64,000 nucleotides of DNA from Candidatus Kaelpia imicola. GTDB lineage: Bacteria; Omnitrophota; Gorgyraeia; Kaelpiales; Kaelpiaceae. The stretch spans positions 34,679 through 98,678 of the forward strand of contig JAVCCL010000026.1 of the NCBI GenBank assembly GCA_030765505.1. The letters run 5' to 3'. This document shows positions 3,484-46,342 of this stretch, one piece after another. The notes beneath the pieces were generated by a model, which was given only the letters and a program-made list of their open reading frames with translations, was not told the DNA's origin and searched no databases. A program made the position numbers and the translations under genes. The number at the start of each line of letters is the position of its first letter. Within the stretch, counting starts at the first letter, position 1.

Positions 3484-4243
3484 GAGAGCCAAGCTTATTT
3501 TAAAAAAACTGCCATCTTTTTTAAAAGATAAGGGTATAATTATAACTTCTATTAAAATCTATGAGTATCTGCTCTTTAGAACTGCAGAGAGAAAAAAGAG
3601 AAAGGCAAAACCACTCTCAATCTTAAAAGATGATATTACGGTAATCACAAACTCAAAAGGTGTAAGTTTAATAGCAGGGGGAAGATTTATCACAAATAAT
3701 GTCGGGTTCCATAGCGCTATTAAAAATCTGGAAAAATGGCACGATTCAACACAGGCCGAATTTAAGTTTATAAAAAGAGCAGGTTCTCTTATTATCAAAG
3801 AGTGGTGGTGGAATCTGCCTCTTAAGTATAAATGGGTCTTTACTCTTAAAGAGAGAAGTATTCTTTGGAAAGGCTCGCTCATAGTCGAGAACTATATTAT
3901 GATTGAAGTGATAAAAACTGGTTTAATTGTTAATAATATTTATGACAGTCTGGTTCTGGGTAAGAAGAGTCTGGACTTACCTGAAAAGAGCCTTCAATGG
4001 CAGGAGATGGATAGGATCGGGAAAAGAACTCTCTTGACTCTAGGCGTTAAAGATAACCCTCTCAGCTTCCCGGATTTGAAATTCAAGATAATCAACTCGC
4101 TCTATCCCTGTAAGATGATAGTACAGAATACAGATAATTATCTTAACGGTAGGTTGCTGCAGATGATCATGGAAGATGAGAGAGAGTACAGGTCGGGCGA
4201 ATATGAGCTTTTTGAGTTGGAGATTTCGGTTATTAAGAAATGA
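3476..4243 (+). CDS. hypothetical protein (TTG start; possibly 3' part of a frameshifted gene with 2824..3483)
   Basis: 255-aa open frame with no in-frame ATG near its 5' end. Only a TTG at 3476 overlaps the previous stop. It is in a different frame from the upstream ORF. Confidence 0.4.
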   Translation: MIKRAKLILKKLPSFLKDKGIIITSIKIYEYLLFRTAERKKRKAKPLSILKDDITVITNSKGVSLIAGGRFITNNVGFHSAIKNLEKWHDSTQAEFKFIKRAGSLIIKEWWWNLPLKYKWVFTLKERSILWKGSLIVENYIMIEVIKTGLIVNNIYDSLVLGKKSLDLPEKSLQWQEMDRIGKRTLLTLGVKDNPLSFPDLKFKIINSLYPCKMIVQNTDNYLNGRLLQMIMEDEREYRSGEYELFELEISVIKK

Positions 4244-9993: not shown

Positions 9994-12900
9994 ATGGAGA
10001 CAGCTATTTTTCCTAATTATCTCATGGTTCAAACAGTTGCAGGCTGTAATGCTAGCTGTTATTTCTGCCCCTACCCCTATCTTAAAGGCAGGATAAAATC
10101 TCAAAAGATGGACTTTAAAATCTTCAGAAAAATAATCGATGAGTGTAAAGACTATAAGGATTTGAAAGTGGTGATGCCTTACCTAATGAACGAGCCCCTG
10201 CTTGATAGAGAGATAGATAAGAAGATAGTCTATATCAAAAAGAGGTTGCCCTGGAGCTCAGCTCATATCTTAACCAACGGCAGCCTTCTGGATGAAGATA
10301 TGAGTCTTAAGCTTATTGGGAGCGGTATAGATTGGGTTGGGTTTAGCCTGCACGGAATAACCGAAAATACTATCAAGAAGACTATGGGCTTGGATTTAGA
10401 GAGAGTCTTGGATAATATATCGAACTTTATAAAAATTGCCCAGAGAGATAGAAAAGATATAGCCGATTTTATAATGCTCACTCTCATAAAAAATGAGAGA
10501 TTATCAGAAAAGGAGCTTGAAGATGCAGTCAGTTTTTGGAAGAGAAAAGGCATTAAAAGAATAAGCAGATACTCTCACCCTATATCTAGAGCTGGCAATG
10601 TACCTCTGCTGAATAAAGTAAGAAATGAGAGACTGTATGGTTGTAACTCTATCTGGGCCGATAAGATGATCCATATTCTTTCAAATGGAGATGTAGTCCT
10701 CTGCTGCATGGATTGGAAGAGAGAGGCTCTGCTGGGTAATATTGAAAAAGATTCTCTCTATGATATCTGGCACTCAAAAAAATATAATAATTTAAGAAGT
10801 CAGATAGACGGGGAGACGGCGGCAGAGAAAGAACTGATATGCCTTAGGTGTGAATGCGCCCAGTCAGAACCCAGGAGAGAGAATAAGAAGATAACCTTGA
10901 TCATTCCTCCACCCTGGGGTGTTGAGAGGCCCCCTGTTGGTTTAGCTGTAATAGCCGAGGTATTAAGAGCATCTGGTTATAGGGTAAGAGTCATGGACTT
11001 AAATCTTAAGATTCATAACTCTGTAGATGAGGATGATAGAAAGTATTGGGGGATGGACTGCTCCCTTTACTTTAGAGATAAAAGATTCATCGACTCTCTA
11101 ATGGAGAAGTATGCTGATCTCTTCTCTGAAATAGAGGATGATTTTAAGAGCGACGATTCAGGTATAGCTGCATTCTCGGTACCTACAAATTCAATGTATC
11201 TAATGCTGAAGTGGATGATTGAGAAGATAAAATATAACCAATCTCGGAAGAAAATTATACTAGGGGGGATTTCGGTTACAGTAAAAGAGCAGAGAGACGA
11301 GCTTTTTGAGATTCTAGGCAATCTTAACTTGATAGATGCGGTAGTTCTTGGAGAAGGCGAAGATACCATTTTAAAGCTTGTTCATAAGTTATCCGGCAAC
11401 AGGTCTATAGTCGATGTCAAAAACACCGTTATAGTTCAAGACGGCAATTTTATAGAGACAGAACCCGGAAAGATAGAGAGCTTAGACAGAATCCCTTTTC
11501 CTAAATATGAAGGGTTTTTGCTTAAAGAGTATACAAAGAGTAACAGCATCTCTTTAGAGCTCTCCCGGGGCTGCATAGGCAGATGTAGTTTCTGCAGCTT
11601 TAAGATCTTAAGCTCTTCTTACAAAAGAAAATCTCCTAAAAGAGTAATAGCTGAGCTTAAGTATTATAAAAAAGAGTTAAAAAAAGAGTATTTCTCTATC
11701 GTGGACTCATCGATAAATGCTGATTTAAAATGGCTGGAAAGATTATCTGAACTGATAATAAAAGAGGATCTTAAGATAAAGCTTACAGCCCTTGCAATAC
11801 CGCGGGGAGATATGAACATGGGGCTGCTTAAAAAGATGAAGAGGGCAGGTTTCTATAGATTAGAGTATGGAGTAGAGAGCGGCTCCAGCAGAATACTTAA
11901 GCTTATGGGTAAGACGTTCTTGGCAGAAGACGCAAAAAGGGCTCTCTCTTTGACGAAGAGAGCAAATATAAAAAACGTACTCTACTTTATTGTCGGGTTT
12001 CCAACCGAGAGCAATGATGATTTTCAGAAGACACTTGATTTTATAGAATCGAATAAGACGAACATAGATTATGTTAAATCTGTAAATCCTCTCTTCCTGA
12101 TGGCCGGCTCAGAGATATTTGCAAACCCTGAAAAGTTTAATATCAGACTGCCTAACGAAAGTCCTGATATCAAATGGTTCATAGAAGGGGAGAATGATTT
12201 TGATCTTAGAATGGAGCGGGTTAAAAGAGTACATAGGCTTTTAAGAGAGTTAAACATCTCTTATACCACTGAAGCAACGGCTTTACCGGATGAAGAGAGT
12301 AAGGTCAAGAAGAAGGATATAGCTCTTGTTACAACAGCTCCCTGGGGCATCAATAATCCGCCTCTGGCGCTTGGATATCTGGCAGACTATCTTAGAAAAC
12401 ATAACTATGACCCCGCTGTATTTGATTTTAATATTGAATTTTACAACTCTATAGATAAAGAGTTGCAGCATCTCTGGCATGTTGAGAACAAGAACTTCTG
12501 GAGAGACAAAGAATGGTTTGATATTATCCTGAAGATCTTTGACAAAGATATAGATTTGGCCGTAAACAGAATAATAGAGAGCGGTGCTGAAGTCATAGGG
12601 TTCTCTGTGGTAGATCCTAAAGAACGGCTGACAATAGAATTTATAAAGAGAATAAAGGCAAAGGATAGCTCAAAAAAGATCATCTTGGGCGGCCCTGCTA
12701 CATTGACGGCACATTCAAGAAATATTTTTATAGATAACATCGCAGAGCATATAGATTTTTTTGTCGTTGGGGAAGGAGAGGAGACGCTCCTTGAGATAAT
12801 GAAAGACGGGAATTGCAAGGATATTTCTGGAGCAATAAGGATGGTTAATGATAAACCAACTGCATTAAAAGAGAGAGCGGTAATAAAAGATTTAAATAGT

Positions 12901-13929
12901 ATACCATACCCCGGCTATAGAGATTTTGATCTGAGTCTCTATCCGGGTGAGTCTCTTATTCTGGAGTGGTCCCGGGGCTGTATAGGAAGTTGTGCTTTCT
13001 GTATTAATCATGAGCTTATAAAAGGCTACCGTTCACGTTCTGCAGAGCATATCTTTGAAGAGTTAAGATATCACACGGATGTTAACGGTATAAGTAACTT
13101 TACTATCTGCGATCCGCTCTTAAATGGAAGCCCTCAAATTTTAGAGCGGCTTTGCGATAAGATCATAGAGAGTGGACTTAAAATAGAGTGGACAGGTGAG
13201 GTTATGCCTAGAAAGGATATGGAAATATCTACTCTTAAAAGGATGAGAGAGGCGGGGTGTGTTAAGCTTCAGGTTGGACTGGAGAGCGGTTCTGATAAAG
13301 TCTTAAAGAGGATGCGTAAGTTATACAACGTTAAGACAGCTGAAGATTTCTTGAGAAAAGCATCTCTTGCAGGTATGGAGACAGAACTTTTTGTCATGAT
13401 AGGTTTTCCATCTGAAGATGAGATTGAATTTCAGAAAACAGCAGATTTCTTTAGACGTAACAAAGAGTATATTAACACTATCAAATCGATAAATACTCTT
13501 CACCTTATAGCAGGTACGGATCTATATAAAAATTACTCTAAATTTAAAATAAAGCCTTTACCCGACGACAACTGGCACTATCTCTGGGAGACCGAAGACG
13601 GCAACAGTTATCCTTTAAGGAGAGAGAGGGGTGAGTCTCTTCTAAGGTTGGCAGAAGAGCTGGGTTTTAAAGTTATGGAGACAAACCTAGAGGAGGGTAA
13701 GCAGCAGAGAGAGAATAATGTCGATATCTCTAGGCTAGAGGTTCTTGTAAACAGAATTCAGTCTCTTCCTCGGGAGAGAAGAGATTTATCAGGTGAGGTT
13801 TTAATTCCAAGAAAGCGAATCTTAAAACTGCCTTACCTGGTTTTGATAGTTGTTCTAACTTTGGCAGCAGAGGTATATCTTTGGTTCTTGAGAAAAGCAA
13901 GGAGAATGATAATCTTTCCCGGAAGTTAA
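9994..13929 (+). CDS. giant tri-domain radical SAM protein: SPASM-type rSAM plus two B12-binding rSAM modules, C-terminal TM anchor
   Basis: 1311 aa. CxxxCxxC motifs at nt 10045-10068 (AGCNASCYFC), 11572-11595 (RGCIGRCSFC) and 12979-13002 (RGCIGSCAFC). There is a Cys-rich CCMDW...CLRCEC tail after module 1. B12-binding-like segments IIPPPWGVERPPVGLAVIAE and TTAPWGINNPPLALGYLADY precede modules 2 and 3. A hydrophobic helix LPYLVLIVVLTLAAEVYLWFL sits near the C-terminus. The start codon abuts the stop of the upstream mega-ORF. Confidence 0.85.
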   Translation: METAIFPNYLMVQTVAGCNASCYFCPYPYLKGRIKSQKMDFKIFRKIIDECKDYKDLKVVMPYLMNEPLLDREIDKKIVYIKKRLPWSSAHILTNGSLLDEDMSLKLIGSGIDWVGFSLHGITENTIKKTMGLDLERVLDNISNFIKIAQRDRKDIADFIMLTLIKNERLSEKELEDAVSFWKRKGIKRISRYSHPISRAGNVPLLNKVRNERLYGCNSIWADKMIHILSNGDVVLCCMDWKREALLGNIEKDSLYDIWHSKKYNNLRSQIDGETAAEKELICLRCECAQSEPRRENKKITLIIPPPWGVERPPVGLAVIAEVLRASGYRVRVMDLNLKIHNSVDEDDRKYWGMDCSLYFRDKRFIDSLMEKYADLFSEIEDDFKSDDSGIAAFSVPTNSMYLMLKWMIEKIKYNQSRKKIILGGISVTVKEQRDELFEILGNLNLIDAVVLGEGEDTILKLVHKLSGNRSIVDVKNTVIVQDGNFIETEPGKIESLDRIPFPKYEGFLLKEYTKSNSISLELSRGCIGRCSFCSFKILSSSYKRKSPKRVIAELKYYKKELKKEYFSIVDSSINADLKWLERLSELIIKEDLKIKLTALAIPRGDMNMGLLKKMKRAGFYRLEYGVESGSSRILKLMGKTFLAEDAKRALSLTKRANIKNVLYFIVGFPTESNDDFQKTLDFIESNKTNIDYVKSVNPLFLMAGSEIFANPEKFNIRLPNESPDIKWFIEGENDFDLRMERVKRVHRLLRELNISYTTEATALPDEESKVKKKDIALVTTAPWGINNPPLALGYLADYLRKHNYDPAVFDFNIEFYNSIDKELQHLWHVENKNFWRDKEWFDIILKIFDKDIDLAVNRIIESGAEVIGFSVVDPKERLTIEFIKRIKAKDSSKKIILGGPATLTAHSRNIFIDNIAEHIDFFVVGEGEETLLEIMKDGNCKDISGAIRMVNDKPTALKERAVIKDLNSIPYPGYRDFDLSLYPGESLILEWSRGCIGSCAFCINHELIKGYRSRSAEHIFEELRYHTDVNGISNFTICDPLLNGSPQILERLCDKIIESGLKIEWTGEVMPRKDMEISTLKRMREAGCVKLQVGLESGSDKVLKRMRKLYNVKTAEDFLRKASLAGMETELFVMIGFPSEDEIEFQKTADFFRRNKEYINTIKSINTLHLIAGTDLYKNYSKFKIKPLPDDNWHYLWETEDGNSYPLRRERGESLLRLAEELGFKVMETNLEEGKQQRENNVDISRLEVLVNRIQSLPRERRDLSGEVLIPRKRILKLPYLVLIVVLTLAAEVYLWFLRKARRMIIFPGS

Positions 13930-15114: not shown

Positions 15115-16192
15115 GCTGGTATTTATAACAAGAGAACCCCCTGAGCTTTCCGGAGCAAAGTACAGAGCTTATAATTTCACAAAGATATTAAAAGAGAGCG
15201 GGTATAGAGCCGAGGTTATATCCTACTCTGCAGACCTTGGAGCTTATTCGGGTATCTTAGAGCAGTATCTCTCAATAGCTGATAAGATAGGCTATAATTT
15301 AAAAGCCTATCTTAAGTTCAGGCAATACAAGAATCCTGTTTTTATAATTCAGCGCTTTAATTATCACTCTCTGGCTCCGCTATTGTTCTGTCTTAAAAAC
15401 AGGATAAAATTCGTATATGATATAGATGATTGGGAGTTTAGGGAGAATATCGATTATTTTAAAGGTCTATTTCCAAGATCAAAAGCAGAGTTTCTGTTCA
15501 GAAAGACAGCAAAGAGAGCGGCTCTCTGTATAAGCGGAAGCCATTATCTGCAAAACTATATAATTACCATTACACCAAAAAGCTATTACCTTGCTCCGGG
15601 AATAGATACTGAATTATTTAAACCTGAAATGGAGAAGGCTGCTTTAGCCAAAACTTTAGCCTGGGTGGGAACAATGTTCAGAGAGGAGGATTACATCAAT
15701 TTAAAGTATCTCTTCAAGATAATGAAAAATTTACCTCATCTTACACTTGAGGTAGTAGGAGACGGTCATTATAAGAATAAGATTGCAGCAGAGTCCAAGA
15801 GACTAGAGCTTAAAAATATCGTCTTTAGAGGCTGGATGGAGAGTTCCAGAATCCCTGAGTATCTCGAAAATATAAGCTTGGGATTATTTCCTCTTAAGGT
15901 GAAGAACAGATTTACAGAGGCTAAGTTTCCGGTAAAAGTACTGGAGTTTATGAGTAAAGGTATACCTACTGTTGCAACATCATTTGGTGAGGTTAAAAAT
16001 ATAATCAAAGATGGAGAGAACGGCTTACTTGCTGAAGATGAGAATGATTTTAAAGATAAGATAGAGATGGTATTAGAAGATAGCAGGTTATATTCCCGGA
16101 TCTCAAAATCGGCTAGGGAGAGTGTGATAGCAAACTATTCTGACCGCAGGCAGACTCAGAAGCTGATATCAATATTGGATAGAGAGCTATGA
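15095..16192 (+). CDS. glycosyltransferase family 1 (GT4-like)
   Basis: 365 aa. Carries a C-terminal EX7E-type motif region (FGEVKNIIKDGENGLLAEDEND) typical of retaining GT-B enzymes. Confidence 0.75.
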   Translation: MSLKDYELVFITREPPELSGAKYRAYNFTKILKESGYRAEVISYSADLGAYSGILEQYLSIADKIGYNLKAYLKFRQYKNPVFIIQRFNYHSLAPLLFCLKNRIKFVYDIDDWEFRENIDYFKGLFPRSKAEFLFRKTAKRAALCISGSHYLQNYIITITPKSYYLAPGIDTELFKPEMEKAALAKTLAWVGTMFREEDYINLKYLFKIMKNLPHLTLEVVGDGHYKNKIAAESKRLELKNIVFRGWMESSRIPEYLENISLGLFPLKVKNRFTEAKFPVKVLEFMSKGIPTVATSFGEVKNIIKDGENGLLAEDENDFKDKIEMVLEDSRLYSRISKSARESVIANYSDRRQTQKLISILDREL

Positions 16193-17661
16193 ATAAAAAG
16201 GTAGTTCTTATGAACTCTGTAGGTAAGGATGATATCGGACGCTTTATCATACACTCTCCTTCCAGGTGGTCTGAGGGTGTGGAGAGACTATCATCCTGGT
16301 TCTGTTATTATCCATGGGAGCTTGCTTATGCAACTGCCTTACTTAAGAAGAAGACCTCCTATAAAATCAAGCTCATAGATCCCTGCCTCGGGAGGTGGGA
16401 TAAAGAAGAGACTCTGAGCAATATCTTAGAAGAAGAGCCGGACTGGTTGATAGTAGAGAGTGCTACGCGGACAATATCTGAGAATCTCTGGGTCGGAAAG
16501 AACATAAAGAGAATAACTCAGACTAAGATAGTATTCGTTGGCCAACATGCTACTGCTTTTCCTCAAGACCTTATCTCCAGAGGTGTAGATTATGCGGCTA
16601 TCGGAGAGTATGAAGAGACATTACTTGAGTTGTTGGTAACCGAAGATAGTTCTATAGCCGGACTCTATCCAAATCAACGCAGGCCGTTAGTAGATATAAC
16701 AAAATTACCCTGGCCGGAAGATAGAGATCTAAAGAGAATCGAATATGGCAGCCCTGGCGAACCAAGTTCAGAATATCTTGAGATTCAGGCCTATGCCAGC
16801 CGCGGCTGCTACAGAGACTGTCCTTTCTGTGTCGCAAGAAACGTATATTACAACCAATCTAAGCAGAGATTTCGTAAGGTAGCTGATATTATATCTGAAA
16901 TAGAGTATCTAAAAAACAGCTATCCCCGGCTTGAGGGTATTTTTTTTGATGAAGAGTCTCATAACTCAAGCAAAGATTTTATCAGGGAATTAACATCAGC
17001 AATTATAAGTTCAGGATTGAATAGTTTAAAATACGAAGCTATGTGCGACCTGAGATTCCTGGATAGAGAGAGCATGGATTGTATGAAAAGAGCAGGATAT
17101 TACAAGGTTCGTTTCGGAATAGAGACGGCTTCTGAAGAGTTGGCCTTATCAATAGCCAAGCCTATCTCAGTTGATAAAACTCTCTCCACTTTAAGTTATG
17201 CTAAAGAGATAGGGCTAAAGACCTATACTACTTTTATGTTTGGTTTACCTGGTTCAAACGTTAAAAGGGATGGTCAGACAATAGATTTCATCTCCCGTAT
17301 CATAAAACAGGATTTAGTAGATAACATACAGATATCTCTGGCTACACCTCAACCGGGTACCCCTTTCTATAATTGGGCAAAAGAGAGAGACTTTATTACA
17401 GATAACGATCCTCACTCTTTTGACGGAGGAGGACCAGCTATTTTAAACTATCCCGATTATGGAAAAGAAGAGATAGAAGAATTATTGAAAATGGCTGTTA
17501 TAAAAAGAGACCACCTCTTCTTTATGAATAATCTCAGAAAGCATCCCTTTGGTTTTATAGTTAAACGTTACAAGCGTTACGGTTTGAAGTTGTTGATAGA
17601 GAAACTGTTAAGGCGTATTAAAACAGAGCTGCTTTACTTAAAGCTCTCCAAGAGAAGGTAA
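16189..17661 (+). CDS. B12-binding domain radical SAM protein
   Basis: 490 aa. The N-terminus is paralogous to the start of the 4240 gene (SRWS...YPWELAYATALLKKK...KLID). CxxxCxxC lies at nt 16806-16830 (RGCYRDCPFC). Confidence 0.85.
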   Translation: MNKKVVLMNSVGKDDIGRFIIHSPSRWSEGVERLSSWFCYYPWELAYATALLKKKTSYKIKLIDPCLGRWDKEETLSNILEEEPDWLIVESATRTISENLWVGKNIKRITQTKIVFVGQHATAFPQDLISRGVDYAAIGEYEETLLELLVTEDSSIAGLYPNQRRPLVDITKLPWPEDRDLKRIEYGSPGEPSSEYLEIQAYASRGCYRDCPFCVARNVYYNQSKQRFRKVADIISEIEYLKNSYPRLEGIFFDEESHNSSKDFIRELTSAIISSGLNSLKYEAMCDLRFLDRESMDCMKRAGYYKVRFGIETASEELALSIAKPISVDKTLSTLSYAKEIGLKTYTTFMFGLPGSNVKRDGQTIDFISRIIKQDLVDNIQISLATPQPGTPFYNWAKERDFITDNDPHSFDGGGPAILNYPDYGKEEIEELLKMAVIKRDHLFFMNNLRKHPFGFIVKRYKRYGLKLLIEKLLRRIKTELLYLKLSKRR

Positions 17662-24228: not shown

Positions 24229-24696
24229 ATGGTTATCGATCAACAGGTAAGGAGGTTGTTGTTACTCATGAAAAGTGAAAAAACTAAAGCAATAGCAGCG
24301 GCTGATTTTTTATATCGGCTGCAATATACAATTAATCAGCCGATAGAGAATATGCAGACAGATAATGGAAGTGAGTTTACCTGGCATTTTGACCGAACAG
24401 CAGATAGATTGAAAATAGATAGATATTTTTCCAGAGTTAAAACACCGAAAGATAACCCTGAAGCTGAGAGATTTAATCAAACTCTAAAATATGAGTGGTT
24501 ATATGATAACAATTTAGATTTAGATTGTGATAGATTTAATAGAGAGTTAACTGAATGGCTGATAGAATACAATTTCAACAGACCTCATGAAACTCTTGAT
24601 TACTTGACTCCTATGGAGCATATAGAAAACGAGTTGACTAAAATTAGAAGCCCTGTCAAAGTGTTACCTATGTGGTCAGCCAGAACATATTCTTGA
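24229..24696 (+). mobile_element. DDE transposase/integrase (rve-type) C-terminal fragment; IS remnant
   Basis: The 155-aa product contains TDNGSEF...PKDNPEAERFNQTLKYEW...YNFNRPHETLDYLTPME. This matches the C-terminal half of an IS3/IS481-type integrase catalytic core. The N-terminal HTH and the first catalytic D are absent, so it is truncated and non-functional. Confidence 0.7.
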
Positions 24697-30220: not shown

Positions 30221-31215
30221 GAATACTGGGAATAGAGACCTCATGCGATGAGACTTCAATAGCCATTGTCAAAGACGGCAGTATTGTAGAATCAAATATT
30301 GTAGCTTCCAGCATAGAACTGCATAAAAAATATGGGGGAATAGTACCTGAGATAGCAACACGTCACCACGTAGAGGTAATACTTCCTGTCTTAAAAGAGG
30401 CGCTCTCTGAATCAGGGATAGAGTTATCCAAAATAGACGTTCTGGCCGTTACACAAGGGCCGGGATTAATAGGCTCGCTTATGGTGGGTATCACATTTGC
30501 AAAATCTATCGCCTATGCTCTGGGGCTACCGCTAATACCGGTAGACCATATTTTAGCCCATCTATATTCACCCTACCTAAATCAAGCAGGCATAGAGTTT
30601 CCTTACTTAGGTCTTGCTGTTTCAGGCGGCCATACAAGCCTATTTGTAGTTAATGGTTTTTGCGATTTTAGACTAATCGGAAAGACTAGAGACGATGCCT
30701 TGGGTGAATCCTTTGATAAGGTTGCTAAGATGCTTGGGCTCGGTTTCCCCGGAGGCCCAGAGGTAGAGAGAAGGGCAGAGAGGGCAAAAAAAAGAGATAC
30801 TATCTTTACCCCGCCGAAAATAAGAGATGGTTACGACTTAAGCTATAGCGGTCTTAAGACCGCAGTGCTCTACCATCTAAAGAGACAGGAGAGACTTGAA
30901 GATTCTGATATTGATGAAGTATGTTATGGATTTCAGAAAGCAGCTTTAGAATCCCTGCTTTTCAAGGTAGAGCAGGCTTTGGCTGATTTTAAACTCAAGA
31001 GGGTTCTTGCCGGCGGAGGGGTCACAGCTAATAGCAGACTAAGAGAGTTACTGAAAAAATTAGAGGCAGATGTATATCTGGCTGATAAAAAATATTCATC
31101 AGACAATGCAGGAATGGTTGCAGGTCTTGCCTATCGACTGTATAATAAAGACAGAGAGATAGGCTTTGATTTAAATTTTGAACCTTATTCGATATTTGGA
31201 GAGAGATGGACTTAG
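30217..31215 (+). CDS. tsaD: tRNA N6-adenosine threonylcarbamoyltransferase
   Basis: 332 aa. MRILGIETSCDETSIAIV is the canonical Kae1/TsaD N-terminus. SGGV motif present. Confidence 0.9.
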   Translation: MRILGIETSCDETSIAIVKDGSIVESNIVASSIELHKKYGGIVPEIATRHHVEVILPVLKEALSESGIELSKIDVLAVTQGPGLIGSLMVGITFAKSIAYALGLPLIPVDHILAHLYSPYLNQAGIEFPYLGLAVSGGHTSLFVVNGFCDFRLIGKTRDDALGESFDKVAKMLGLGFPGGPEVERRAERAKKRDTIFTPPKIRDGYDLSYSGLKTAVLYHLKRQERLEDSDIDEVCYGFQKAALESLLFKVEQALADFKLKRVLAGGGVTANSRLRELLKKLEADVYLADKKYSSDNAGMVAGLAYRLYNKDREIGFDLNFEPYSIFGERWT

Positions 31216-31859
31216 CCGATATTTTTAAAATCTTGCTGGCATTGATACTCTCAGGGTTGATTGGTCTTGAGAGAGAACGGCACGGAAGAGCTGCTGGTTT
31301 CAGAACCCATATGCTGGTTGGAATAGGCTCTGCTCTGATGATGATCACATCAATAAATATGCACAGACTCTACGGTGCTCCTGCAGACCCATCCAGGATA
31401 GCAGCACAGGTTATAAGCGGAATAGGTTTTCTGGGGGCAGGAACAATAATACGTTTTAAAGCCTCAATACGCGGTTTAACTACGGCAGCATCTCTCTGGG
31501 CTGTTGCCGGAATAGGGCTTGCAGTAGGTTCCGGCGGATACAGCTCAGCAATAGTAACAACTGCGATAATTCTAGGAGTTCTTTTTCTACTGCCTGACTT
31601 TGAAAGAAATATTTTAAGAAGCCCCACTTTTAAAACTCTACAGATAGAAGGTTCAAAAGACTTAAAAATACTTCAGGAGGTTAGACTGATACTGGCTGAA
31701 TACAAGAGTGAGATAAAAGATTTCAGCATCAAGACTCTATCTGATCAGGAAGATAGCTGCTTGATAGAGCTTAACCTAAAGATGCTGGATAGATATGCTG
31801 AAGATATTAAAAACGATCTCATTAGGATAGCGGGTATAAAATCAATAAATTGGATCTAA
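31206..31859 (+). CDS. MgtC/SapB family membrane protein
   Basis: 217 aa. GLERERHGRAAGFRTHMLVGIGSALMM is the MgtC family signature. Confidence 0.8.
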   Translation: MDLADIFKILLALILSGLIGLERERHGRAAGFRTHMLVGIGSALMMITSINMHRLYGAPADPSRIAAQVISGIGFLGAGTIIRFKASIRGLTTAASLWAVAGIGLAVGSGGYSSAIVTTAIILGVLFLLPDFERNILRSPTFKTLQIEGSKDLKILQEVRLILAEYKSEIKDFSIKTLSDQEDSCLIELNLKMLDRYAEDIKNDLIRIAGIKSINWI

Positions 31860-31871
31860 AGGAGGTGTAAT

Positions 31872-32381
31872 GTGGCTGTCAAAAAGAGAAGCAATGAGAA
31901 AATTTTAGAAATCAACGCTACGATGCAGGGTGAACTCACTTTTAAAGACCCTGTAAACCTTACCATAAACGGAAATTTCCAAGGTAAGCTTAATACGAAG
32001 GGTGCGCTTTTAGTAGGAAAAGATGCCTATGTAGGCGCAGAGATAATCGGCGAGGATATTACGATTGCAGGTAAGATAGACGGGAATATAGTTGCCCAGA
32101 AAAGATTGACTCTAATACCGCCTGCCAATGTTAAAGGTGAAATTAAGACCCCTATCTTAATCGTAGAGGAGGGAGCGACATTAAACGGTGAGTGCATTAT
32201 GAAGTCTGAGATAACAAAATTTTTGACGCTTGAAGAGATGGCAACCTATCTTAAGATTGACAGAGAGACTCTTCTTAATTGGGTAGAAGATAATAAAATA
32301 CCTGTCATGAGAGAAGGCTCTAAATACCTCTTTGACAGAAAAGAGGTTGAGAACTGGCTTTCAAAAGAGAAGGTTTCTTAA
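31872..32381 (+). CDS. bactofilin-like polymerising domain fused to excisionase-type HTH DNA-binding domain
   Basis: 169 aa. Residues ~20-110 carry a beta-helical bactofilin-like repeat (KGALLVGKDAYVGAEIIGEDITIAGKIDGNIVAQK). Residues ~118-169 carry LTLEEMATYLKIDRETLLNWVEDNKIPVMREGSKYLFDRKEVENWL, an HTH_17/excisionase-like pattern. Confidence 0.65.
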   Translation: MAVKKRSNEKILEINATMQGELTFKDPVNLTINGNFQGKLNTKGALLVGKDAYVGAEIIGEDITIAGKIDGNIVAQKRLTLIPPANVKGEIKTPILIVEEGATLNGECIMKSEITKFLTLEEMATYLKIDRETLLNWVEDNKIPVMREGSKYLFDRKEVENWLSKEKVS

Positions 32382-32392
32382 CTTGAAAAACA

Positions 32393-32746
32393 ATGGATAA
32401 GCTTTTAACTCTTAGCGAGTCAGCCGCATTTCTCGGAGTTAGAGACGAAGTATTTCAGGATCTGATAGATCAGTATAAGATCCCGCACTATAAGATTGCC
32501 GGTAAGTTTATCCGCTTCTCACAACAAGAGCTTGAAAAGTACAGAGATACAGTTAAAAAGGGCGGAGGAGATAAAGATAGCAATAAGAGGAATGCGGCAG
32601 AGATAGAGAAGATAAGAGAGATTGAATATAAGAGAGAGAGCCTCTCTCCTGCTGTAAAAATCTCAGAGTTTCTTAAATTCAATGATTTCTATATATTGAG
32701 TCTAATAATAATCATAATGCTGCTGTTCTATATAATAAAATTCTAA
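32393..32746 (+). CDS. excisionase-family HTH domain protein with C-terminal TM helix
   Basis: 117 aa. The N-terminal LTLSESAAFLGVRDEVFQDLIDQYKIPHYKIAGKFIRFSQQELEKY is paralogous to the C-terminus of the upstream gene. The C-terminus is hydrophobic (FYILSLIIIIMLLFYIIKF). Confidence 0.55.
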   Translation: MDKLLTLSESAAFLGVRDEVFQDLIDQYKIPHYKIAGKFIRFSQQELEKYRDTVKKGGGDKDSNKRNAAEIEKIREIEYKRESLSPAVKISEFLKFNDFYILSLIIIIMLLFYIIKF

Positions 32747-32783
32747 CTATGCTAAAAGCAGAAGTTTATGGTATAATTAAAAA

Positions 32784-34448
32784 ATGAAAAGGTTGAGAAT
32801 AAAAGTTGTTATTTTTATTATTTTATTCTCTGGTTTACTCCTTTCAAAGATTTTTCTTGCAGAAGCAGAAGAGGTCTATCCAGAGTGGAAAATAAAGCTT
32901 GCCTATACTTTAAGTGCAAAAGGCAGTGATATTAAAATCCATGACCCGGAGTTAGCTAAAGAGTATTATGCCCGTGCAAAGAGGTTGTACCCCTTGGCAG
33001 TATCAGGGAAAGAGGAGATGAAAGTTGTAAAGAGTATAAAGTTAGAGAAGATCGCAGCAGTAGAAGTAAAAGAGAAGGTTGAGGTTAAGCAGAAATCTGG
33101 GAAAACAGAAGAGAAAAGCAGTAGACCTGAACTGTTGGCAAGAGAGGAGAAGAGGCCGTTAATAGAGGTTACAAAGAGAGAAGAAAAGTCTCTGCCTAAA
33201 ATAACTAAACCTACAGAGAAAAAATATAAAACTGAAGAATACAGCGATTATCCAGAGAGTGCAATAATAGCAGAATTTAAAAGCGTAGATGCGCGTAAGG
33301 TCTATGGGGCTGAAAAATTAGGTCCGACAGTGAATACGCTGCTTGACCCTTACTACATGAAGCATAAGAACTTCAGGATTCCTTACTATAAAGACCGCGA
33401 AGGATTAAAGATCCATCCCTGGATAGGCGTAAGAGGCGAATATAAATACGATGAGCAGAGAGTAGGGATAGAGAGCTTAATGATGGAGGCTCAGGAGTTT
33501 AATCAGAGAAGAAATGACCAGATACGGGACTACATATCAATCAACAAGAAAGAGTACTACAGGGAAGAGGTAATCTTACATATCAGAGAATGGCTTCCAA
33601 AGTTTACTTTTATAAACCATGAGGAGATTGTAAAGAGAACATGGGAAGCCAAAAAAATATGGTCTTCAAACAATAATACCTATTACGATAATCGCAACAA
33701 AAGGTATTACCAGCTTGAATATACCATTCCACGTCTTAAAAGAATAGGCTATCTAAAGTTAAAGCTGCGCTATGGTGATGAGCTATCTTACAGAACAAAC
33801 GACCCTGCTGCATACCTGCCTTACGAGTCTCATCTGGTGGGATTTGAGACTTCTCCTCATATCTCACGTCTTGGCAGATTGAAGATAAAGTTTGAGTATG
33901 AATATTGGAATGGGGAATACAAACAGGCTCAGAATCAAGGCTGGTCTGAGAGGGATGCCTGGGGGAGAGACTACTTACTAGAGTTTGAACTCTATAACCA
34001 GAAAAAATTCTTAAGGATTACCCCGCATTTTAACTGGAAGAAGGAGCAGCACTCTCCAAGCCATGACACCTGGTGGACAAAGAAGACAGGTTTAAAGCTG
34101 CAGAAAAATATAAATGGAAAGCTAAGTTATACAACAGACTGGACATATATTGATTATACCAGGACAAAGAGTCCGGAGACCTCATCTGCGCAGACTATAT
34201 CTACCTCCTGCTGGACTTGGGAAAACGAAATGGAGATCGAACTATTGCGGGACCTTAAACTTATAGTCGGACTTGACTATGGAAACGGACTGGGCTTTAG
34301 CGGATTCGACAATATAACCGGCAGAGGTGAGCTGATGCTTAGAAAACCGGGATTAATAGATCTACGTTTCGGCTATAGATATACAGATTATATTAACGTT
34401 AATGATAATGTAGATACGGTCTACTTTAAATTAGGGTTATTCATATGA
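32784..34448 (+). CDS. secreted protein, probable outer-membrane beta-barrel with Lys/Glu-rich linker
   Basis: 554 aa. Signal peptide and a K/E-rich low-complexity segment. The C-terminal ~350 aa has alternating aromatic beta-strand patterns. Confidence 0.5.
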   Translation: MKRLRIKVVIFIILFSGLLLSKIFLAEAEEVYPEWKIKLAYTLSAKGSDIKIHDPELAKEYYARAKRLYPLAVSGKEEMKVVKSIKLEKIAAVEVKEKVEVKQKSGKTEEKSSRPELLAREEKRPLIEVTKREEKSLPKITKPTEKKYKTEEYSDYPESAIIAEFKSVDARKVYGAEKLGPTVNTLLDPYYMKHKNFRIPYYKDREGLKIHPWIGVRGEYKYDEQRVGIESLMMEAQEFNQRRNDQIRDYISINKKEYYREEVILHIREWLPKFTFINHEEIVKRTWEAKKIWSSNNNTYYDNRNKRYYQLEYTIPRLKRIGYLKLKLRYGDELSYRTNDPAAYLPYESHLVGFETSPHISRLGRLKIKFEYEYWNGEYKQAQNQGWSERDAWGRDYLLEFELYNQKKFLRITPHFNWKKEQHSPSHDTWWTKKTGLKLQKNINGKLSYTTDWTYIDYTRTKSPETSSAQTISTSCWTWENEMEIELLRDLKLIVGLDYGNGLGFSGFDNITGRGELMLRKPGLIDLRFGYRYTDYINVNDNVDTVYFKLGLFI

Positions 34449-35026
34449 AGAGAATACTGCAATTATTAATTTTAATACTGATGCTTAGGCAGCCTCAGCT
34501 ATTCTGTGAATATTTAAAGATTGCTGATTTTGACAGAGGCGAAAAACCCAACCTTATCAGCGGTGATTATGGTTCCTGGAATAGGACAGAGCGGGACAGA
34601 ACGCAGTTCTGCAATGAGGATCTTACCACTGACCCCCAAATAGTTTACGGCGGACGAGGCTGTAGTCTCTCTCTCTATTACGATGTTGATTCGCCCAACC
34701 CTCCGGTATATAACGGATTCTGGATGCGTCTTGAGAGAATAGATTTAACGGTTTGGAAATACCTCTCTTTTTATGTAAAAGGTGATGAAGAGCATGGCTA
34801 CACTTCAGCCTTTGAAGTCCAAATTAAAAATATTCAAGGGAAGCTTGCATCCTTTAATATTGAGGGTGTAACATCCAAGTGGCAGCAGATAATAATACCG
34901 TTGAATAAGATGAACGAGGAGGCTGATTTCTCAGAGGCTTACGAGATGGTTATAGTGTTTGACGAGAGAGACGCAACCCGAAAAGAGGGAAGAATATTCC
35001 TGGACGAATTTTGCCTTTACAGATAA
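34445..35026 (+). CDS. hypothetical secreted protein
   Basis: 193 aa. Signal peptide. ATGA overlap with the upstream gene. Confidence 0.5.
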   Translation: MKRILQLLILILMLRQPQLFCEYLKIADFDRGEKPNLISGDYGSWNRTERDRTQFCNEDLTTDPQIVYGGRGCSLSLYYDVDSPNPPVYNGFWMRLERIDLTVWKYLSFYVKGDEEHGYTSAFEVQIKNIQGKLASFNIEGVTSKWQQIIIPLNKMNEEADFSEAYEMVIVFDERDATRKEGRIFLDEFCLYR

Positions 35027-43099: not shown

Positions 43100-43128
43100 T
43101 TGACATTTTGTTGCTTATGTGGTATAAA
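43100..43128 (+). promoter_or_regulatory. sigma70-like promoter (TTGACA-17 nt-TATAAA) upstream of the 43145 gene
   Basis: TTGACA at 43100-43105, a 17-nt spacer, and TATAAA at 43123-43128. The ORF track's TTG start at 43100 is this -35 hexamer. Confidence 0.4.
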
Positions 43129-43144
43129 TATTACAGGCAGAAAG

Positions 43145-46100
43145 ATGAAGAGAGAGAAGGTAATAAAAATTGCCATAGGGAAAGCACTTTTAAGCATAAC
43201 ACTTCTAATCTTTACATCTGCAGGGATCTCCAATGCCCAGGTAGTATTTGATGCGGGAGGATTTGGAGGTGGGAATATAACCCTTCCGGCTGCAAGCCCA
43301 GTAGAACAGTTGTGGGAAAAATTGGAAATAACTCCTTTTGAGTTTGGAGATAAACTTGATAAAATTCAATTCGAAATATACTTGATCGCAAATAACCCTC
43401 TATCAATTATTTCTCCTGTTAACCGTCTAAATGAAATCAATACCATACTAACTGATTGGGTCAACATATTTAATACTTGTGACGTTAGTGCCGATTCAAT
43501 TATACCATTGCAGGGCACTATCCATGATACTCTAAAAAAAATGGAGCGGGTGGAGATAGAGCTTGGTACCCCAATAGACGAAATTGCAGAGATATTAAAA
43601 ATTAGAGAACAAGAATTAGAGTTGTTATATTTCGTACCGCGTGATTCAGATTTTTATAAGACCCAAGTATTAGATTATACCGCAACTATCTCAAAGCAGA
43701 TTGATGGATGGAAAGAAGTATTTGAAAATTCCGGATTTGCAGTAGACGTTTTCAGCGATTTACAAGAAGACATAGCAAAGATACAAAATAAATTATCGGG
43801 TCCATTAATTTCAGCACATGTCCCGGTCACGTACGGAGGAATATTAGTTTTACCTTTTGAAGACTTGCTAAAATCTTCTGATACATCTCTTAGAGAGTTT
43901 TTTGCCGAAACCTATATACGCAATGTAACAGAGGAAATACCTCAGTATATTGAGGATTTAGGTATAGCTTTGGAAAAAGCCGAAGCTAATCCTTTGCTTT
44001 TTAAAAATTTTGATGCGCCTAAAGTTTTTAGCCACTTAACAGACATTCATAAAAACCTTGAAGGCTTGAATAAAAACGGATTTCTACAAATAGCAAATGA
44101 AACAATGGGAGCATTCCAAAATTTGATACCTCTCGATGAACAAATAAATAGACTGCAAATACAGATTGAAGCGGTCTCAAGCATTGCACAAGATGGTAAC
44201 ATCAATAAAATCGAACCGTCTACAGATTTAGAACAAGAGCTCGAAATTCTGAAAGCAAAAAGAGCGGATGTATATCTTGAGTTTTTAGTCAAGTTTTCAT
44301 CTTTAACAGAAAGGAATCATGAATATATCCAAGATAAAACAGACGAATTACAACTTGAAAAAGAACTACTCAGCAGTGCTCCTATTAGGAATATGCCTTC
44401 TGAAGACGCTGAAGCTATAAGGAATGCCATGGAAGAGGCGGCAACAAAAAAGGATTTCCTTAAAAGTATTGATGGTCTAATTTTACAAACGTTAAGGTCA
44501 ATTACAGAAATGATAGGTTCTATTATATCAGAAATAATTATAGAAAATGACTCTTATTATGAGGAAAAAACGGCTATTATTTCTACGACAATCTCAAACC
44601 TTAAGACGATAGAACCGTATCTACTTTATGAAGAAGCTAAATCTATCAATAGTGCGATTGAAAACTTAAAACAAGTGCAGCAGCAGCTCGTTAATTTCTA
44701 CAACAATACAATTCAACAAGAAGCAAATGTACCGCAGACATCTCAATTATATACCAAAACATATCTTGATGTTATTAGAACAACGGAAACATCAGGGTTA
44801 GAACGAAGCATTGAAAGAGTAGACCAGTACTTAGATAGCCAATTGAAATATATGGAAGATGAACTACAAAGGAACATCAAACAGAGGGATAGTTTAGCCC
44901 TTCTTCCCAATAATATGCTTCCCGATGATAGGGAATGGATTGAAAAAAGTATACAAGATTTAGAAGCAAAGATTGAGCTCTTATCAGAAAGTATTACGCT
45001 AATGAAGCAAACGATTGAACCTCAATCAAGGACATCCAGCTTAGATCCTGCAGTTGCACCATCTAATAATTCTGAATTACCCTTCTCGCTACCTGTACCA
45101 TCGGGTGTCAAAAAAGCGGAGCAAATTTTCCTTAATAATCCTGAATCATCTTCACCACCTGATAACAATACCCCCTTTAGCTTACTTAAAGATACTAGTC
45201 TAGCCTCTGAACCTCAATCAAGGACATCCGGCTTAGATACTGCAGCTGCACCATCTAATAACACTGTACCACCTTCACTATCTGGCAGCATTACCCTTCC
45301 AGTAATAAATTCGTTAATAAAAAGTGTCTCTTCTAATTTTACAGAAATAGGGCCGGAACCAGGAATTGCTACTCTATCAGCGGGAAATATTGAAACTACT
45401 ACTTATGAGAGTTTAAGTGAAGAAGAAAGAGTTTTCGTAGACAGCATGCTAGGGGTACTAAGAACAGAAGATCCGCAGGTCATTGCAGAAACAATATGGA
45501 GAGCATTACGTGATAGCGGTGGTAATCGTTGCTTTATGATGGACATTATTATGACATTACCTGCCGAAGGAGATATTGGAAACGATCCTAAGTATCAAGA
45601 GTTTATGTCTACAATACGTTCACTTGATGCAAAGCTTCTTCAAGAAGAATTAAGTGAAATGCCGGAACAGATAGATCGACTATTAGAGAATGAGATTAAA
45701 GAGGATTTAGGTGAAGTTAGACAAGAAGTGGCAGGTACGTCAGAAAATCTTGCAAAGTTGGCGATAGAGATAGGGGAAGAGCATCCCGGTGCAAGGGTTA
45801 CAGCAGATGGAATAGTTGTTGCTCCGATATGGATATCTAAAAATACTGGCCGAGAGATAATATCTATTAAAATCGACGGCAAAATTGTTAACTATACCAT
45901 CAGTAAATTTAAAGAAACAATTAGTCATATAAGCCAGGCTCTAGAAGTATCGGAAGAAGTACTGCATAAGCTCTTAGGTAATATTATCGAGAAAGGCGAA
46001 GGCGTCTATGATGTTATATGGATTACTTTAGATAACGGTAAAACAGTACATTACGTAAGACGCAGTGATACCATCGTCTATATTAACTCAACCAACCCGG

Positions 46101-46342
46101 CAGAAATTGCAAAGGAAATTATAAAGAAAGTGTTTATAAAGCGCCCCGATGCATCAAGCGCAGTGGTAAACAGAATATTTTTGTTCATGGTTATAGCAGG
46201 CTTAATATGTATAGGATTTGGAGTAACACTAGCGGTCTGCATAGCCAAAGCACAGATTAAGAGGTCAGAGTATCTCCCTCCCGCGTTGAGAGTAAAAAAA
46301 TCCTTCCAGCACAACTACGCAGCTAATTGGAAAACAAGGTAG
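43145..46342 (+). CDS. large secreted/surface coiled-coil protein with C-terminal TM anchor
   Basis: The start is revised to ATG 43145 (MKREKV...), which gives a clean signal peptide (LLSITLLIFTSAGISNAQ). There are more than 900 aa of heptad-rich sequence. A C-terminal hydrophobic helix (IFLFMVIAGLICIGFGVTLAVCIA) is followed by basic residues. Confidence 0.7.
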   Translation: MKREKVIKIAIGKALLSITLLIFTSAGISNAQVVFDAGGFGGGNITLPAASPVEQLWEKLEITPFEFGDKLDKIQFEIYLIANNPLSIISPVNRLNEINTILTDWVNIFNTCDVSADSIIPLQGTIHDTLKKMERVEIELGTPIDEIAEILKIREQELELLYFVPRDSDFYKTQVLDYTATISKQIDGWKEVFENSGFAVDVFSDLQEDIAKIQNKLSGPLISAHVPVTYGGILVLPFEDLLKSSDTSLREFFAETYIRNVTEEIPQYIEDLGIALEKAEANPLLFKNFDAPKVFSHLTDIHKNLEGLNKNGFLQIANETMGAFQNLIPLDEQINRLQIQIEAVSSIAQDGNINKIEPSTDLEQELEILKAKRADVYLEFLVKFSSLTERNHEYIQDKTDELQLEKELLSSAPIRNMPSEDAEAIRNAMEEAATKKDFLKSIDGLILQTLRSITEMIGSIISEIIIENDSYYEEKTAIISTTISNLKTIEPYLLYEEAKSINSAIENLKQVQQQLVNFYNNTIQQEANVPQTSQLYTKTYLDVIRTTETSGLERSIERVDQYLDSQLKYMEDELQRNIKQRDSLALLPNNMLPDDREWIEKSIQDLEAKIELLSESITLMKQTIEPQSRTSSLDPAVAPSNNSELPFSLPVPSGVKKAEQIFLNNPESSSPPDNNTPFSLLKDTSLASEPQSRTSGLDTAAAPSNNTVPPSLSGSITLPVINSLIKSVSSNFTEIGPEPGIATLSAGNIETTTYESLSEEERVFVDSMLGVLRTEDPQVIAETIWRALRDSGGNRCFMMDIIMTLPAEGDIGNDPKYQEFMSTIRSLDAKLLQEELSEMPEQIDRLLENEIKEDLGEVRQEVAGTSENLAKLAIEIGEEHPGARVTADGIVVAPIWISKNTGREIISIKIDGKIVNYTISKFKETISHISQALEVSEEVLHKLLGNIIEKGEGVYDVIWITLDNGKTVHYVRRSDTIVYINSTNPAEIAKEIIKKVFIKRPDASSAVVNRIFLFMVIAGLICIGFGVTLAVCIAKAQIKRSEYLPPALRVKKSFQHNYAANWKTR
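45017..45261 (+). repeat. two copies of a 53-nt near-identical direct repeat spaced 192 nt apart (64-aa period) inside the 43145 gene
   Basis: Copy 1 at 45017-45069 and copy 2 at 45209-45261 differ at 3 of 53 nt. They encode EPQSRTS(S/G)LD(P/T)A(V/A)APSNN. The flanking sequence between copies is far more diverged. Confidence 0.6.

Follow-up and report, generated by a model that had tools for sequence, protein, structure and literature searches.

Bactofilins are widespread scaffold proteins whose clients and modes of membrane attachment are known in a handful of model species, and Omnitrophota are ultra-small, largely uncultured bacteria, for the cell biology of which there are, to our knowledge, almost no molecular data. 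What might a bactofilin do that ends in an excisionase-type helix-turn-helix (HTH) domain, and why is its gene followed by one for a membrane protein with the same domain? This question is raised by a stretch of 64,000 nucleotides (nt) of contig JAVCCL010000026.1 (positions 34,679 to 98,678, forward strand; assembly GCA_030765505.1) from "Candidatus Kaelpia imicola," a member of the Omnitrophota; the whole stretch is termed the window herein, and all positions are counted from its first letter. The two genes are termed A, which encodes a bactofilin fused to a winged HTH (wHTH), and B, which encodes a small tail-anchored membrane protein with a homologous wHTH. They were found side by side in every locus in which the downstream side of A could be inspected, and we tentatively read B as a membrane adaptor for filaments of A. 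The features of the locus are as follows (aa, amino acids; ORF, open reading frame).

31872 to 32381, plus strand: gene A, bactofilin-wHTH fusion of 169 aa with a GTG start (ORF and Pfam)
31902 to 32195, plus strand: bactofilin beta-helical polymerization domain of A, aa 11 to 108 (PF04519)
32220 to 32366, plus strand: excisionase/MerR-type winged HTH of A, aa 117 to 165 (PF12728)
32393 to 32746, plus strand: gene B, tail-anchored wHTH membrane protein of 117 aa (ORF and HTH_17 match)
32402 to 32545, plus strand: winged HTH of B, aa 4 to 51 (PF12728)
32546 to 32647, plus strand: variable linker of B, aa 52 to 85, mostly disordered (AlphaFold2 [AF2] model; length and charge statistics)
32648 to 32695, plus strand: conserved juxtamembrane helix of B, aa 86 to 101, with the motif E-F-x-x-F-N-D-F-Y-I (alignment and AF2 model)
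32684 to 32740, plus strand: C-terminal transmembrane helix of B, aa 98 to 116 (helix in the AF2 model)
31860 to 31865, plus strand: Shine-Dalgarno-like AGGAGG, 6 nt 5' of the GTG of gene A (sequence reading)
31206 to 31859, plus strand: mgtC-family membrane protein gene, directly 5' of A (PF02308, E value of 5e-41)

A bactofilin-wHTH fusion and its membrane-anchored partner

Protein A matched the bactofilin model PF04519 over aa 11 to 108 with 78.1 bits against a cutoff of 27.9 (E value of 6e-22), and profile matches to the Protein Data Bank included BacA (2n3d, E value of 4e-11) and ThBac (6ria, E value of 2e-9). The AF2 model of A, built on an alignment of 74 sequences, had a mean predicted local distance difference test score (pLDDT) of 85 and consisted of a predicted beta-helix (aa 11 to 110, all beta, with block means of pLDDT between 84 and 96), a short linker of lower confidence, and a winged HTH (aa 117 to 168). 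A Foldseek search with the core matched Caulobacter BacA (2n3d) with a TM-score of 0.82 and a root mean square deviation (rmsd) of 2.0 Å, and the Thermus bactofilin was also matched. An arginine substitution at F130 of BacA (PMC12448750) or at F105 of ThBac (title of entry 6ria) blocks polymerization. The position of these phenylalanines corresponds to L104 of A, and since it was hydrophobic in all 83 A sequences (L in 57, F in 18, I in 5, and M in 3), the polymerizing core of A looks intact, and polymerization of A is likely. The bactofilin domain was also the best-conserved part of A, with a median pairwise identity of 0.60 versus 0.45 for the HTH. The GTG start is backed by homologues whose N termini read MA[VIL]KK.

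The wHTH domains of both proteins belong to the same family. The HTH_17 model PF12728 was matched by A (aa 117 to 165, 48.7 bits, E value of 9e-13) and by B (aa 4 to 51, 33.3 bits, E value of 6e-8), each against a cutoff of 27, and the NCBIfam model TIGR01764 ("excise," cutoff of 28.8 bits) was matched with 50.0 bits by A and 29.9 bits by B. The two domains are homologous: they share 30% identity (BLASTP E value of 4e-8), and hhalign compared their family alignments with a probability of 98%. Both AF2 models showed a winged-helix fold with the order beta-alpha1-alpha2-beta-beta-alpha3, and a Foldseek search placed the HTH of A next to BldC (rmsd of ∼1.7 Å), RacA, Pukovnik Xis, RdfS, and the DNA-binding domain of pSK1 Par; for the first four of these, rmsd values ranged from 1.0 to 3 Å.

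Following its HTH (aa 1 to 57 in the AF2 model), B has a disordered stretch (aa 58 to 80, pLDDT below 50), a helix at aa 86 to 96 (block means of pLDDT of ∼67 to 84), and an adjoining transmembrane helix at aa 98 to 116 (93 to 95). The C-terminal hydrophobic segment was present in all 81 B homologues, and in the window protein a single residue follows the transmembrane helix. Over aa 52 to 95, the linker region had a family mean charge of about +2.6. Residues E92, F93, N97, D98, F99, Y100, and I101 were invariant in one family alignment, and an FNDFY-type motif was found in 74 of the 81 homologues. A phmmer search with the C-terminal 58 aa of B against a representative library of 1.84 billion proteins, made to find this motif and membrane helix in other architectures, yielded only two proteins, a member of the family and a repetitive junk sequence; a single short query of this kind is too insensitive for the purpose. 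The first-pass annotation of the window, made from its letters, had described a bactofilin domain with a C-terminal HTH of the MerR/excisionase type, followed by a repeat of this HTH on a membrane-anchored protein; this description is borne out on each point, and neither of the two outcomes that would speak against it, a lack of bactofilin matches or a fold other than an HTH, was found, so the architecture stands.

That the two genes belong together, as had also been supposed, was confirmed by the neighborhoods of A homologues. Among 84 loci that we fetched, 81 extend past A and 79 have enough upstream DNA to be compared. In all 81 of the former, the next gene was of the B type, that is, with an HTH_17 domain, a variable linker, and a C-terminal hydrophobic helix, at a median identity between A proteins of only 51%. 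The invariant unit is therefore A-B; an mgtC-family gene is a frequent companion and not an obligatory one.

Most bactofilins, though not all, carry an N-terminal membrane-targeting sequence of the MFSKxxK type. The canonical peptide is MFSKQAKS, of which F2, K4, and K7 are critical (PMC12448750). An MFSK-type peptide was not found in A: none of 74 A proteins had Phe at position 2, and only 3 had any aromatic residue at positions 2 to 8. The N terminus of A instead is polybasic over a short stretch and then turns acidic. Contact of A with the membrane, if there is any, would therefore require a partner.

The fusion is neither a chance event nor an assembly artifact. In a first search, all 75 full-length homologues of A carried both Pfam domains, with identities down to 42%, and those that were named stem from metagenome-assembled genomes (MAGs) of Omnitrophota. 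Protein B of the window is 100% identical to one from the MAG of "Candidatus Kaelpia imicola." A profile search with the A alignment returned 3,173 related clusters at 90% identity; the best 120 of these matches all belonged to the same family as A, and among them we found no fusion from another phylum. When each GTDB species was represented by one genome, a relative was found in at least 560 of them. No fused homologue was found among 72,556 plasmids or 50,697 phage records, and the fusion is apparently a chromosomal core gene of the phylum Omnitrophota. The suggestion that the pair positions plasmids is excluded in practice by these plasmid and phage counts and by the conserved chromosomal housekeeping array in which the pair lies.

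Some records bear other taxonomic labels. Many module-bearing MAG records are titled "uncultured Planctomycetia" (loci L005, L006, and L009, among others) and include proteins 85 to 91% identical to the Kaelpia protein. A single match labeled "Dehalococcoidia" (P0108) has the synteny of Omnitrophota, BatD-TPR-MgtC-A-B-PDZ-HAMP-TPR-PolA (TPR, tetratricopeptide repeat), and is probably a binning error. Since both sequence identity and synteny point to Omnitrophota, these labels are probably mislabels or binning errors.

Public annotations of the homologues read only "polymer-forming cytoskeletal protein" or "excisionase family DNA binding protein." A full-text literature search found no paper that pairs "bactofilin" with "excisionase" or with "Omnitrophota," and a large survey of bactofilins does not mention DNA-binding fusions (PMC12448750). 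As a core feature of a phylum, the combination of a wHTH-fused bactofilin with a second wHTH protein, its obligate and membrane-anchored partner, thus looks new and is apparently undescribed.

DNA contact residues and possible roles of the pair

A pair of excisionase-type HTHs might be expected to read DNA, and the first-pass annotation had proposed a DNA-binding device. We compared the families with BldC, a DNA-bound relative of known structure. In BldC, base contacts are made by Arg30 and Lys26 of the recognition helix, phosphate contacts by Thr27, Thr29, Lys33, and Trp31, and minor-groove contacts by His46, Arg47, and Arg48 of the wing; the exchange R30A abolishes DNA binding, and RacA uses the equivalent arginine (PMC5859096). 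Residue equivalences were read off after the A family had been aligned to BldC with HMMER, and the columns were counted over 83 A and 80 B sequences.

BldC Arg30: in A, E or D in 67 of 83 (81%) and N in the window protein; in B, basic in 28 of 80, acidic in 31 of 80, and D in the window protein
BldC Lys26: in A, S, N, or E; in B, E, K, or D
BldC Lys33: in A, N, S, D, or E; in B, D, E, N, or A
BldC Thr27: in A, variable; in B, E or D in 67 of 80
BldC Arg48 (wing): in A, position 153, R, K, or H in 62 of 83 and L in the window protein; in B, Arg41, invariant in 80 of 80

The basic residues with which the recognition helix of BldC contacts DNA (K26, R30, and K33) are thus not kept in the A or B family. 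The HTH of A is acidic, with a mean net charge of −3 (range, −9 to +1; 83 sequences), and that of B is about neutral, with a recognition helix that opens with three acidic positions; the segments of lambda Xis and BldC that align with it carry, by hand count, charges of about +5 and +4. Judged from these residues, canonical sequence-specific DNA reading by the HTHs of A and B is unlikely. The proposed device is accordingly doubtful as a DNA-binding one: structural neighbors of the HTH include the DNA-anchoring and partition proteins RacA and pSK1 Par as well as BldC, but the HTH of A is acidic and the canonical DNA contact residues are lost.

As the best reading, we propose, tentatively and by analogy, that B perhaps links the bactofilin filaments formed by A to the membrane as an adaptor like RodZ. 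Such an anchor is suggested by five observations together: A and B are strictly paired, A has no membrane-targeting peptide, the HTHs are acidic and degenerate for DNA reading, the linker of B is basic, and its juxtamembrane helix is highly conserved. A would polymerize via its bactofilin beta-helix. B would be a tail-anchored protein of the inner membrane with its whole functional part, the wHTH, the basic flexible linker, and the aromatic juxtamembrane helix, in the cytoplasm, and it would couple A filaments to the cytoplasmic membrane. Contact between A and B might be made by the paired wHTHs with each other, by an HTH and the linker, by the conserved juxtamembrane motif, or by a combination of these, and the wHTHs of both proteins would have been repurposed from reading DNA to binding proteins or the scaffold. 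Polymerization of A, binding of A to B, and tethering of the module to the membrane are thus steps that we infer. There are precedents: the HTH of RodZ binds MreB and itself, not DNA (PMC6946637); BacR of Bacillus subtilis, an HTH protein encoded beside the bactofilins BacE and BacF, binds these and is recruited by them to the membrane (PMC13649987); and PbpC, a client of Caulobacter BacA, docks through a short conserved cytoplasmic peptide (PMC12448750). As neighbors, ctpA and a PF04748 deacetylase gene hint weakly at functions in the envelope or in morphogenesis. Omnitrophota are reported to retain the canonical dcw/FtsZ set (PMC12283558), and the module is therefore more likely to be an accessory organizer than the divisome itself.

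Several observations weigh against an adaptor role for B. The RodZ analogy is architectural only, the RodZ HTH being of a different class (XRE), and all of the structures closest to the wHTH come from DNA-binding proteins. Conserved basic residues persist in or near the wings, namely, K142, K/R147, R/K/H153, and R/K156 in A and K/R34, the invariant R41, and K/R43 in B, and the invariant Trp137 of A corresponds to Trp31 of BldC, a DNA backbone contact. With these wing residues and Trp137 conserved, weak wing-mediated or otherwise low-specificity DNA binding, boosted by the avidity of a polymer, is possible. At least two K or R residues were found at positions 2 to 8 in 73 of 74 A proteins, and this polybasic N terminus might itself confer weak electrostatic affinity for the membrane or for DNA. 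The charge of the A HTH was anticorrelated with that of the B linker (Spearman rho of −0.28, naive P value of 0.011, not corrected for phylogeny) and not correlated with that of the B HTH; the anticorrelation is weak and confounded by phylogeny, has little weight, and was not used as evidence of contact.

Should B be the anchor, this would be a novel mode of bactofilin attachment to membranes, in which a folded wHTH, always accompanied by a membrane-anchored copy, has replaced the usual targeting peptide in a phylum-wide bactofilin, and B would provide the second HTH fold, after that of RodZ, to be recruited as a cytoskeleton adaptor.

Another explanation, plausible although less likely and along the lines of the first-pass annotation, is a tether between nucleoid and membrane or a segregation scaffold, in which A filaments display arrays of wHTHs on chromosomal DNA and B holds the same DNA or similar sites at the membrane. 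Its mode of action would be that of RacA/DivIVA, pSK1 Par, or BacNOP-ParB, except that here polymer and DNA-binding domain are one protein. The structural relatives of the A wHTH, among them the centromere-binding domain of pSK1 Par, fit such a role, as do the conserved basic wing residues, including the invariant R41 of B at the place of the minor-groove residue R48 of BldC, and the invariant W137 of A. Bactofilins organize ParABS in Myxococcus (PMC5703909), wHTHs of the excisionase type tend to form head-to-tail filaments on DNA, as BldC does (PMC5859096), and the avidity of the polymer could offset a weak affinity of the monomer. The acidic recognition helices of both families, the net charge of the A HTH, and the replacement of the base-reading arginine argue against it. 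Furthermore, a scan for repeat or centromere-like arrays found nothing at the locus, neither parA nor parB was found within the 64-kb window, and the 72,556 plasmids yielded no fused homologue.

It is unlikely, in our estimate, that the filament binds DNA directly through its fused wHTH array and, with the membrane-anchored paralogue, tethers or partitions the nucleoid at the membrane. If it does, a DNA-binding bactofilin would be a chromosome-organizing cytoskeleton independent of ParABS, without a nucleoside triphosphatase of its own and universal in a phylum, and the HTHs would make it the first cytoskeletal polymer to have an array of DNA-binding domains built in. Bactofilin filaments are nonpolar, and the C-terminal HTHs would therefore be paired by two-fold symmetry at alternate subunit interfaces, an arrangement that would resemble a polymerized dimer of the MerR type. 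Whether B turns out to be an adaptor or a DNA tether, the pair offers a testable entry into the cell biology of Omnitrophota, with proteins that are small (117 to 169 aa) and easily expressed.

A regulatory switch like that of BacR is improbable. In such a switch, one or both wHTH proteins would be transcription factors, and sequestering them in the bactofilin polymer or at the membrane would control whether they reach DNA, with autoregulation or an envelope stress response as output. In B. subtilis, BacR loses DNA binding when bound to bactofilin and moves between membrane and nucleoid, and it bound DNA without apparent sequence preference, so that an atypical HTH can act on DNA (PMC13649987). 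Neither HTH of the pair, however, matches DUF4004 (PF13171), even at E values of up to 10, and the DNA-reading residues are missing. B, a permanently membrane-anchored protein, lacks a sensor domain outside the cytoplasm, and we identified no site at which it might be cleaved. The intergenic gaps of the window, 12 nt between the mgtC-family gene and A and 11 nt between A and B in a long codirectional array, leave no space for a promoter or operator.

Gene neighborhood and other features of the window

Upstream of A, the usual gene order is gatB-ctpA-tsaD-mgtC-A-B. The tsaD gene lies upstream of A in 74 of the 79 loci, with ctpA and gatB further up, and in 64 of the 79 loci an mgtC-family gene separates tsaD from A; overall, 68 loci had an mgtC hit, and in 11 of the 12 without one, A directly follows tsaD. 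In one lineage, the upstream context is BatD-TPR, yet mgtC-A-B remain adjacent. Because the mgtC-family gene adjoins A-B even where the upstream context differs, a three-part membrane module of mgtC, A, and B is suggested in most lineages. Downstream of B, genes of the AIRC/LarB type, of the PDZ-HAMP type, or for an ATPase of the type II secretion system were found, depending on the locus.

The array from gatB to B is syntenic across the phylum, and gene order alone does not prove a functional link; A and B could be neighbors by inherited order only and act independently, in which case A would be a bactofilin that bears an accessory domain and B a small membrane protein unrelated to it. We consider this quite improbable: A and B are adjacent in 81 of 81 loci while their flanks vary (mgtC is absent in 12, BatD-TPR lies upstream in one lineage, and the downstream genes differ), and they share a homologous domain of the same diverged type with an acidic helix. 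A role in a mobile element or in defense, be it as an excisionase (recombination directionality factor), as a partition device of a plasmid or phage, or as a component of a MADS-like system, was suggested by the "excise" match and by subthreshold matches to the HTH of MADS Mad1 (NF047737, 42.2 and 29.7 bits against a cutoff of 80) and is effectively refuted, and so very improbable, given the conserved housekeeping synteny in at least 79 loci, the occurrence in at least 560 species genomes, the lack of a fused homologue on the plasmids and phages searched, the lack of an adjacent integrase or mobile-element gene (the nearest, an rve_3 fragment, lies 7 kb upstream), and a PADLOC result of mad1 only (28.8 and 20.4 bits) with no other MADS genes.

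Two length classes of the mgtC-family gene occur beside A, one of ∼140 to 165 aa that consists of the transmembrane domain only and one of ∼216 to 237 aa, to which the gene of the window belongs, that is extended at the C terminus. On the minus strand of the A-B interval there are only short ORFs, of 56 and 64 aa. Promoter-like sites around the locus were ∼1.6 standard deviations above the mean of shuffled sequences in this AT-rich DNA, and terminator-like sites were at the shuffle mean; both counts lie at or close to chance, and neither gave operon boundaries. No Rfam family matched at the locus, and neither mreB nor ftsZ was found in the 64-kb window.

In the window, B is followed by genes for proteins of 554 aa and 193 aa, two TPR proteins, and PolA. 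The 554-aa gene (plus strand, in the region 32784 to 35026) was conserved downstream in 5 of 67 loci and the 193-aa gene in 1 of 67; the 554-aa protein has a signal-peptide-like N terminus, and neither product matched Pfam or NCBIfam. These two genes, which are restricted to close relatives, look like an insertion placed between B and the TPR-TPR-PolA genes, which are found more widely, and we rejected a functional link to A-B because the two are lineage specific. Of the statement that the pair sits directly upstream of an outer-membrane/TPR cluster, it thus remains that two TPR genes lie further down; the genes next to B have no Pfam match, and the association is incidental. A perfect match to the extended −10 element, TGgTATAAT, lies at 32769 to 32777 and ends 6 nt 5' of the ATG of the 554-aa gene (32784). 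Although it is a consensus match only, it suggests that this gene may have its own promoter, perhaps giving a leaderless mRNA, and may be a transcription unit apart from A-B.

In one Omnitrophota lineage (L085, at 5556 to 5922, and also L086), a noncoding, palindrome-rich insert of 368 nt parts A and B. Its palindromes include CCTGCCTACCGGCAGGCAGG and ACAATTTACG...CGTAAATTGT, and it may be an element like a miniature inverted-repeat transposable element or a repetitive extragenic palindrome, or else a structured RNA. At 24229 to 24696 of the window (plus strand), just 5' of gatA and ∼7 kb from A-B, a 155-aa ORF with an rve_3 integrase core is a transposase fragment or the remnant of a small insertion sequence.

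At 4240 to 13929 (plus strand), the window encodes two giant concatenated radical S-adenosylmethionine (SAM) proteins, of 1,917 aa, with four Radical_SAM stretches, three SPASM domains, and one B12-binding domain, and of 1,311 aa, with three Radical_SAM stretches, a B12-binding domain, and a SPASM domain. Fusions of several radical SAM domains of such size are unusual. The same cluster has an ABC-2 exporter (163 to 2827), glycosyltransferases of families GT1, GT4, and GT2, and a B12-binding radical SAM protein (16189 to 17661). Two further large ORFs had no Pfam match at E values of up to 1e-5, one at 43100 to 46342 (plus strand; 1,080 aa, TTG start) and one at 58063 to 59826 (plus strand; 587 aa).

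Comparison with known systems

With the canonical bactofilins Caulobacter BacA, Thermus ThBac, and Helicobacter pylori CcmA, protein A has in common the beta-helical DUF583 core and the hydrophobic residue at the F130/F105 position. Unlike these, it has no MFSK-type peptide, a folded C-terminal wHTH takes the place of the disordered tail, and its gene is obligately paired with that of a membrane-anchored wHTH protein. RacA, which anchors the chromosome in B. subtilis, and pSK1 Par likewise join a MerR/excisionase-like wHTH to a self-associating scaffold (5i41/5i44 and 8csh); their scaffolds are coiled coils, and their basic recognition helices with a base-reading arginine bind defined DNA sites, whereas A has a bactofilin beta-helix and an acidic recognition helix. 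The closest matches of the A HTH in sequence and structure are BldC, lambda and Pukovnik Xis, and RdfS (rmsd of 1.6 to 1.8 Å), which are small, basic, and DNA bound. BldC assembles head to tail via a hydrophobic face that includes the conserved tryptophan, but neither A nor B conserves its Arg30, Lys26, and Lys33, and A-B lies in no recombinase or mobile-element context.

In Myxococcus xanthus, the BacNOP-PadC-ParABS system links a bactofilin scaffold to chromosome organization (PMC5703909); there, the link is made via the separate proteins ParB and PadC, and no par genes lie near A-B. BacR (YhbD, DUF4004) of B. subtilis is, like the wHTHs described here, genetically linked to bactofilins, BacE and BacF (PMC13649987), but it is a separate soluble protein of ∼210 aa from Bacillota, whereas the Omnitrophota pair has one HTH as part of the bactofilin itself and another on a membrane-anchored protein. 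B is laid out like RodZ, the bitopic partner of MreB, with a cytoplasmic HTH at the N terminus, a juxtamembrane linker of positive charge, and one transmembrane helix (PMC6946637). It differs from RodZ in its HTH, which is of the excisionase/MerR type (HTH_17) with no significant match to an XRE-type model, and in the position of its transmembrane helix at the extreme C terminus, which leaves no periplasmic domain, so that B is RodZ-like in layout only and not a member of the RodZ family. Its presumed partner differs as well, being a bactofilin with its own copy of this HTH.

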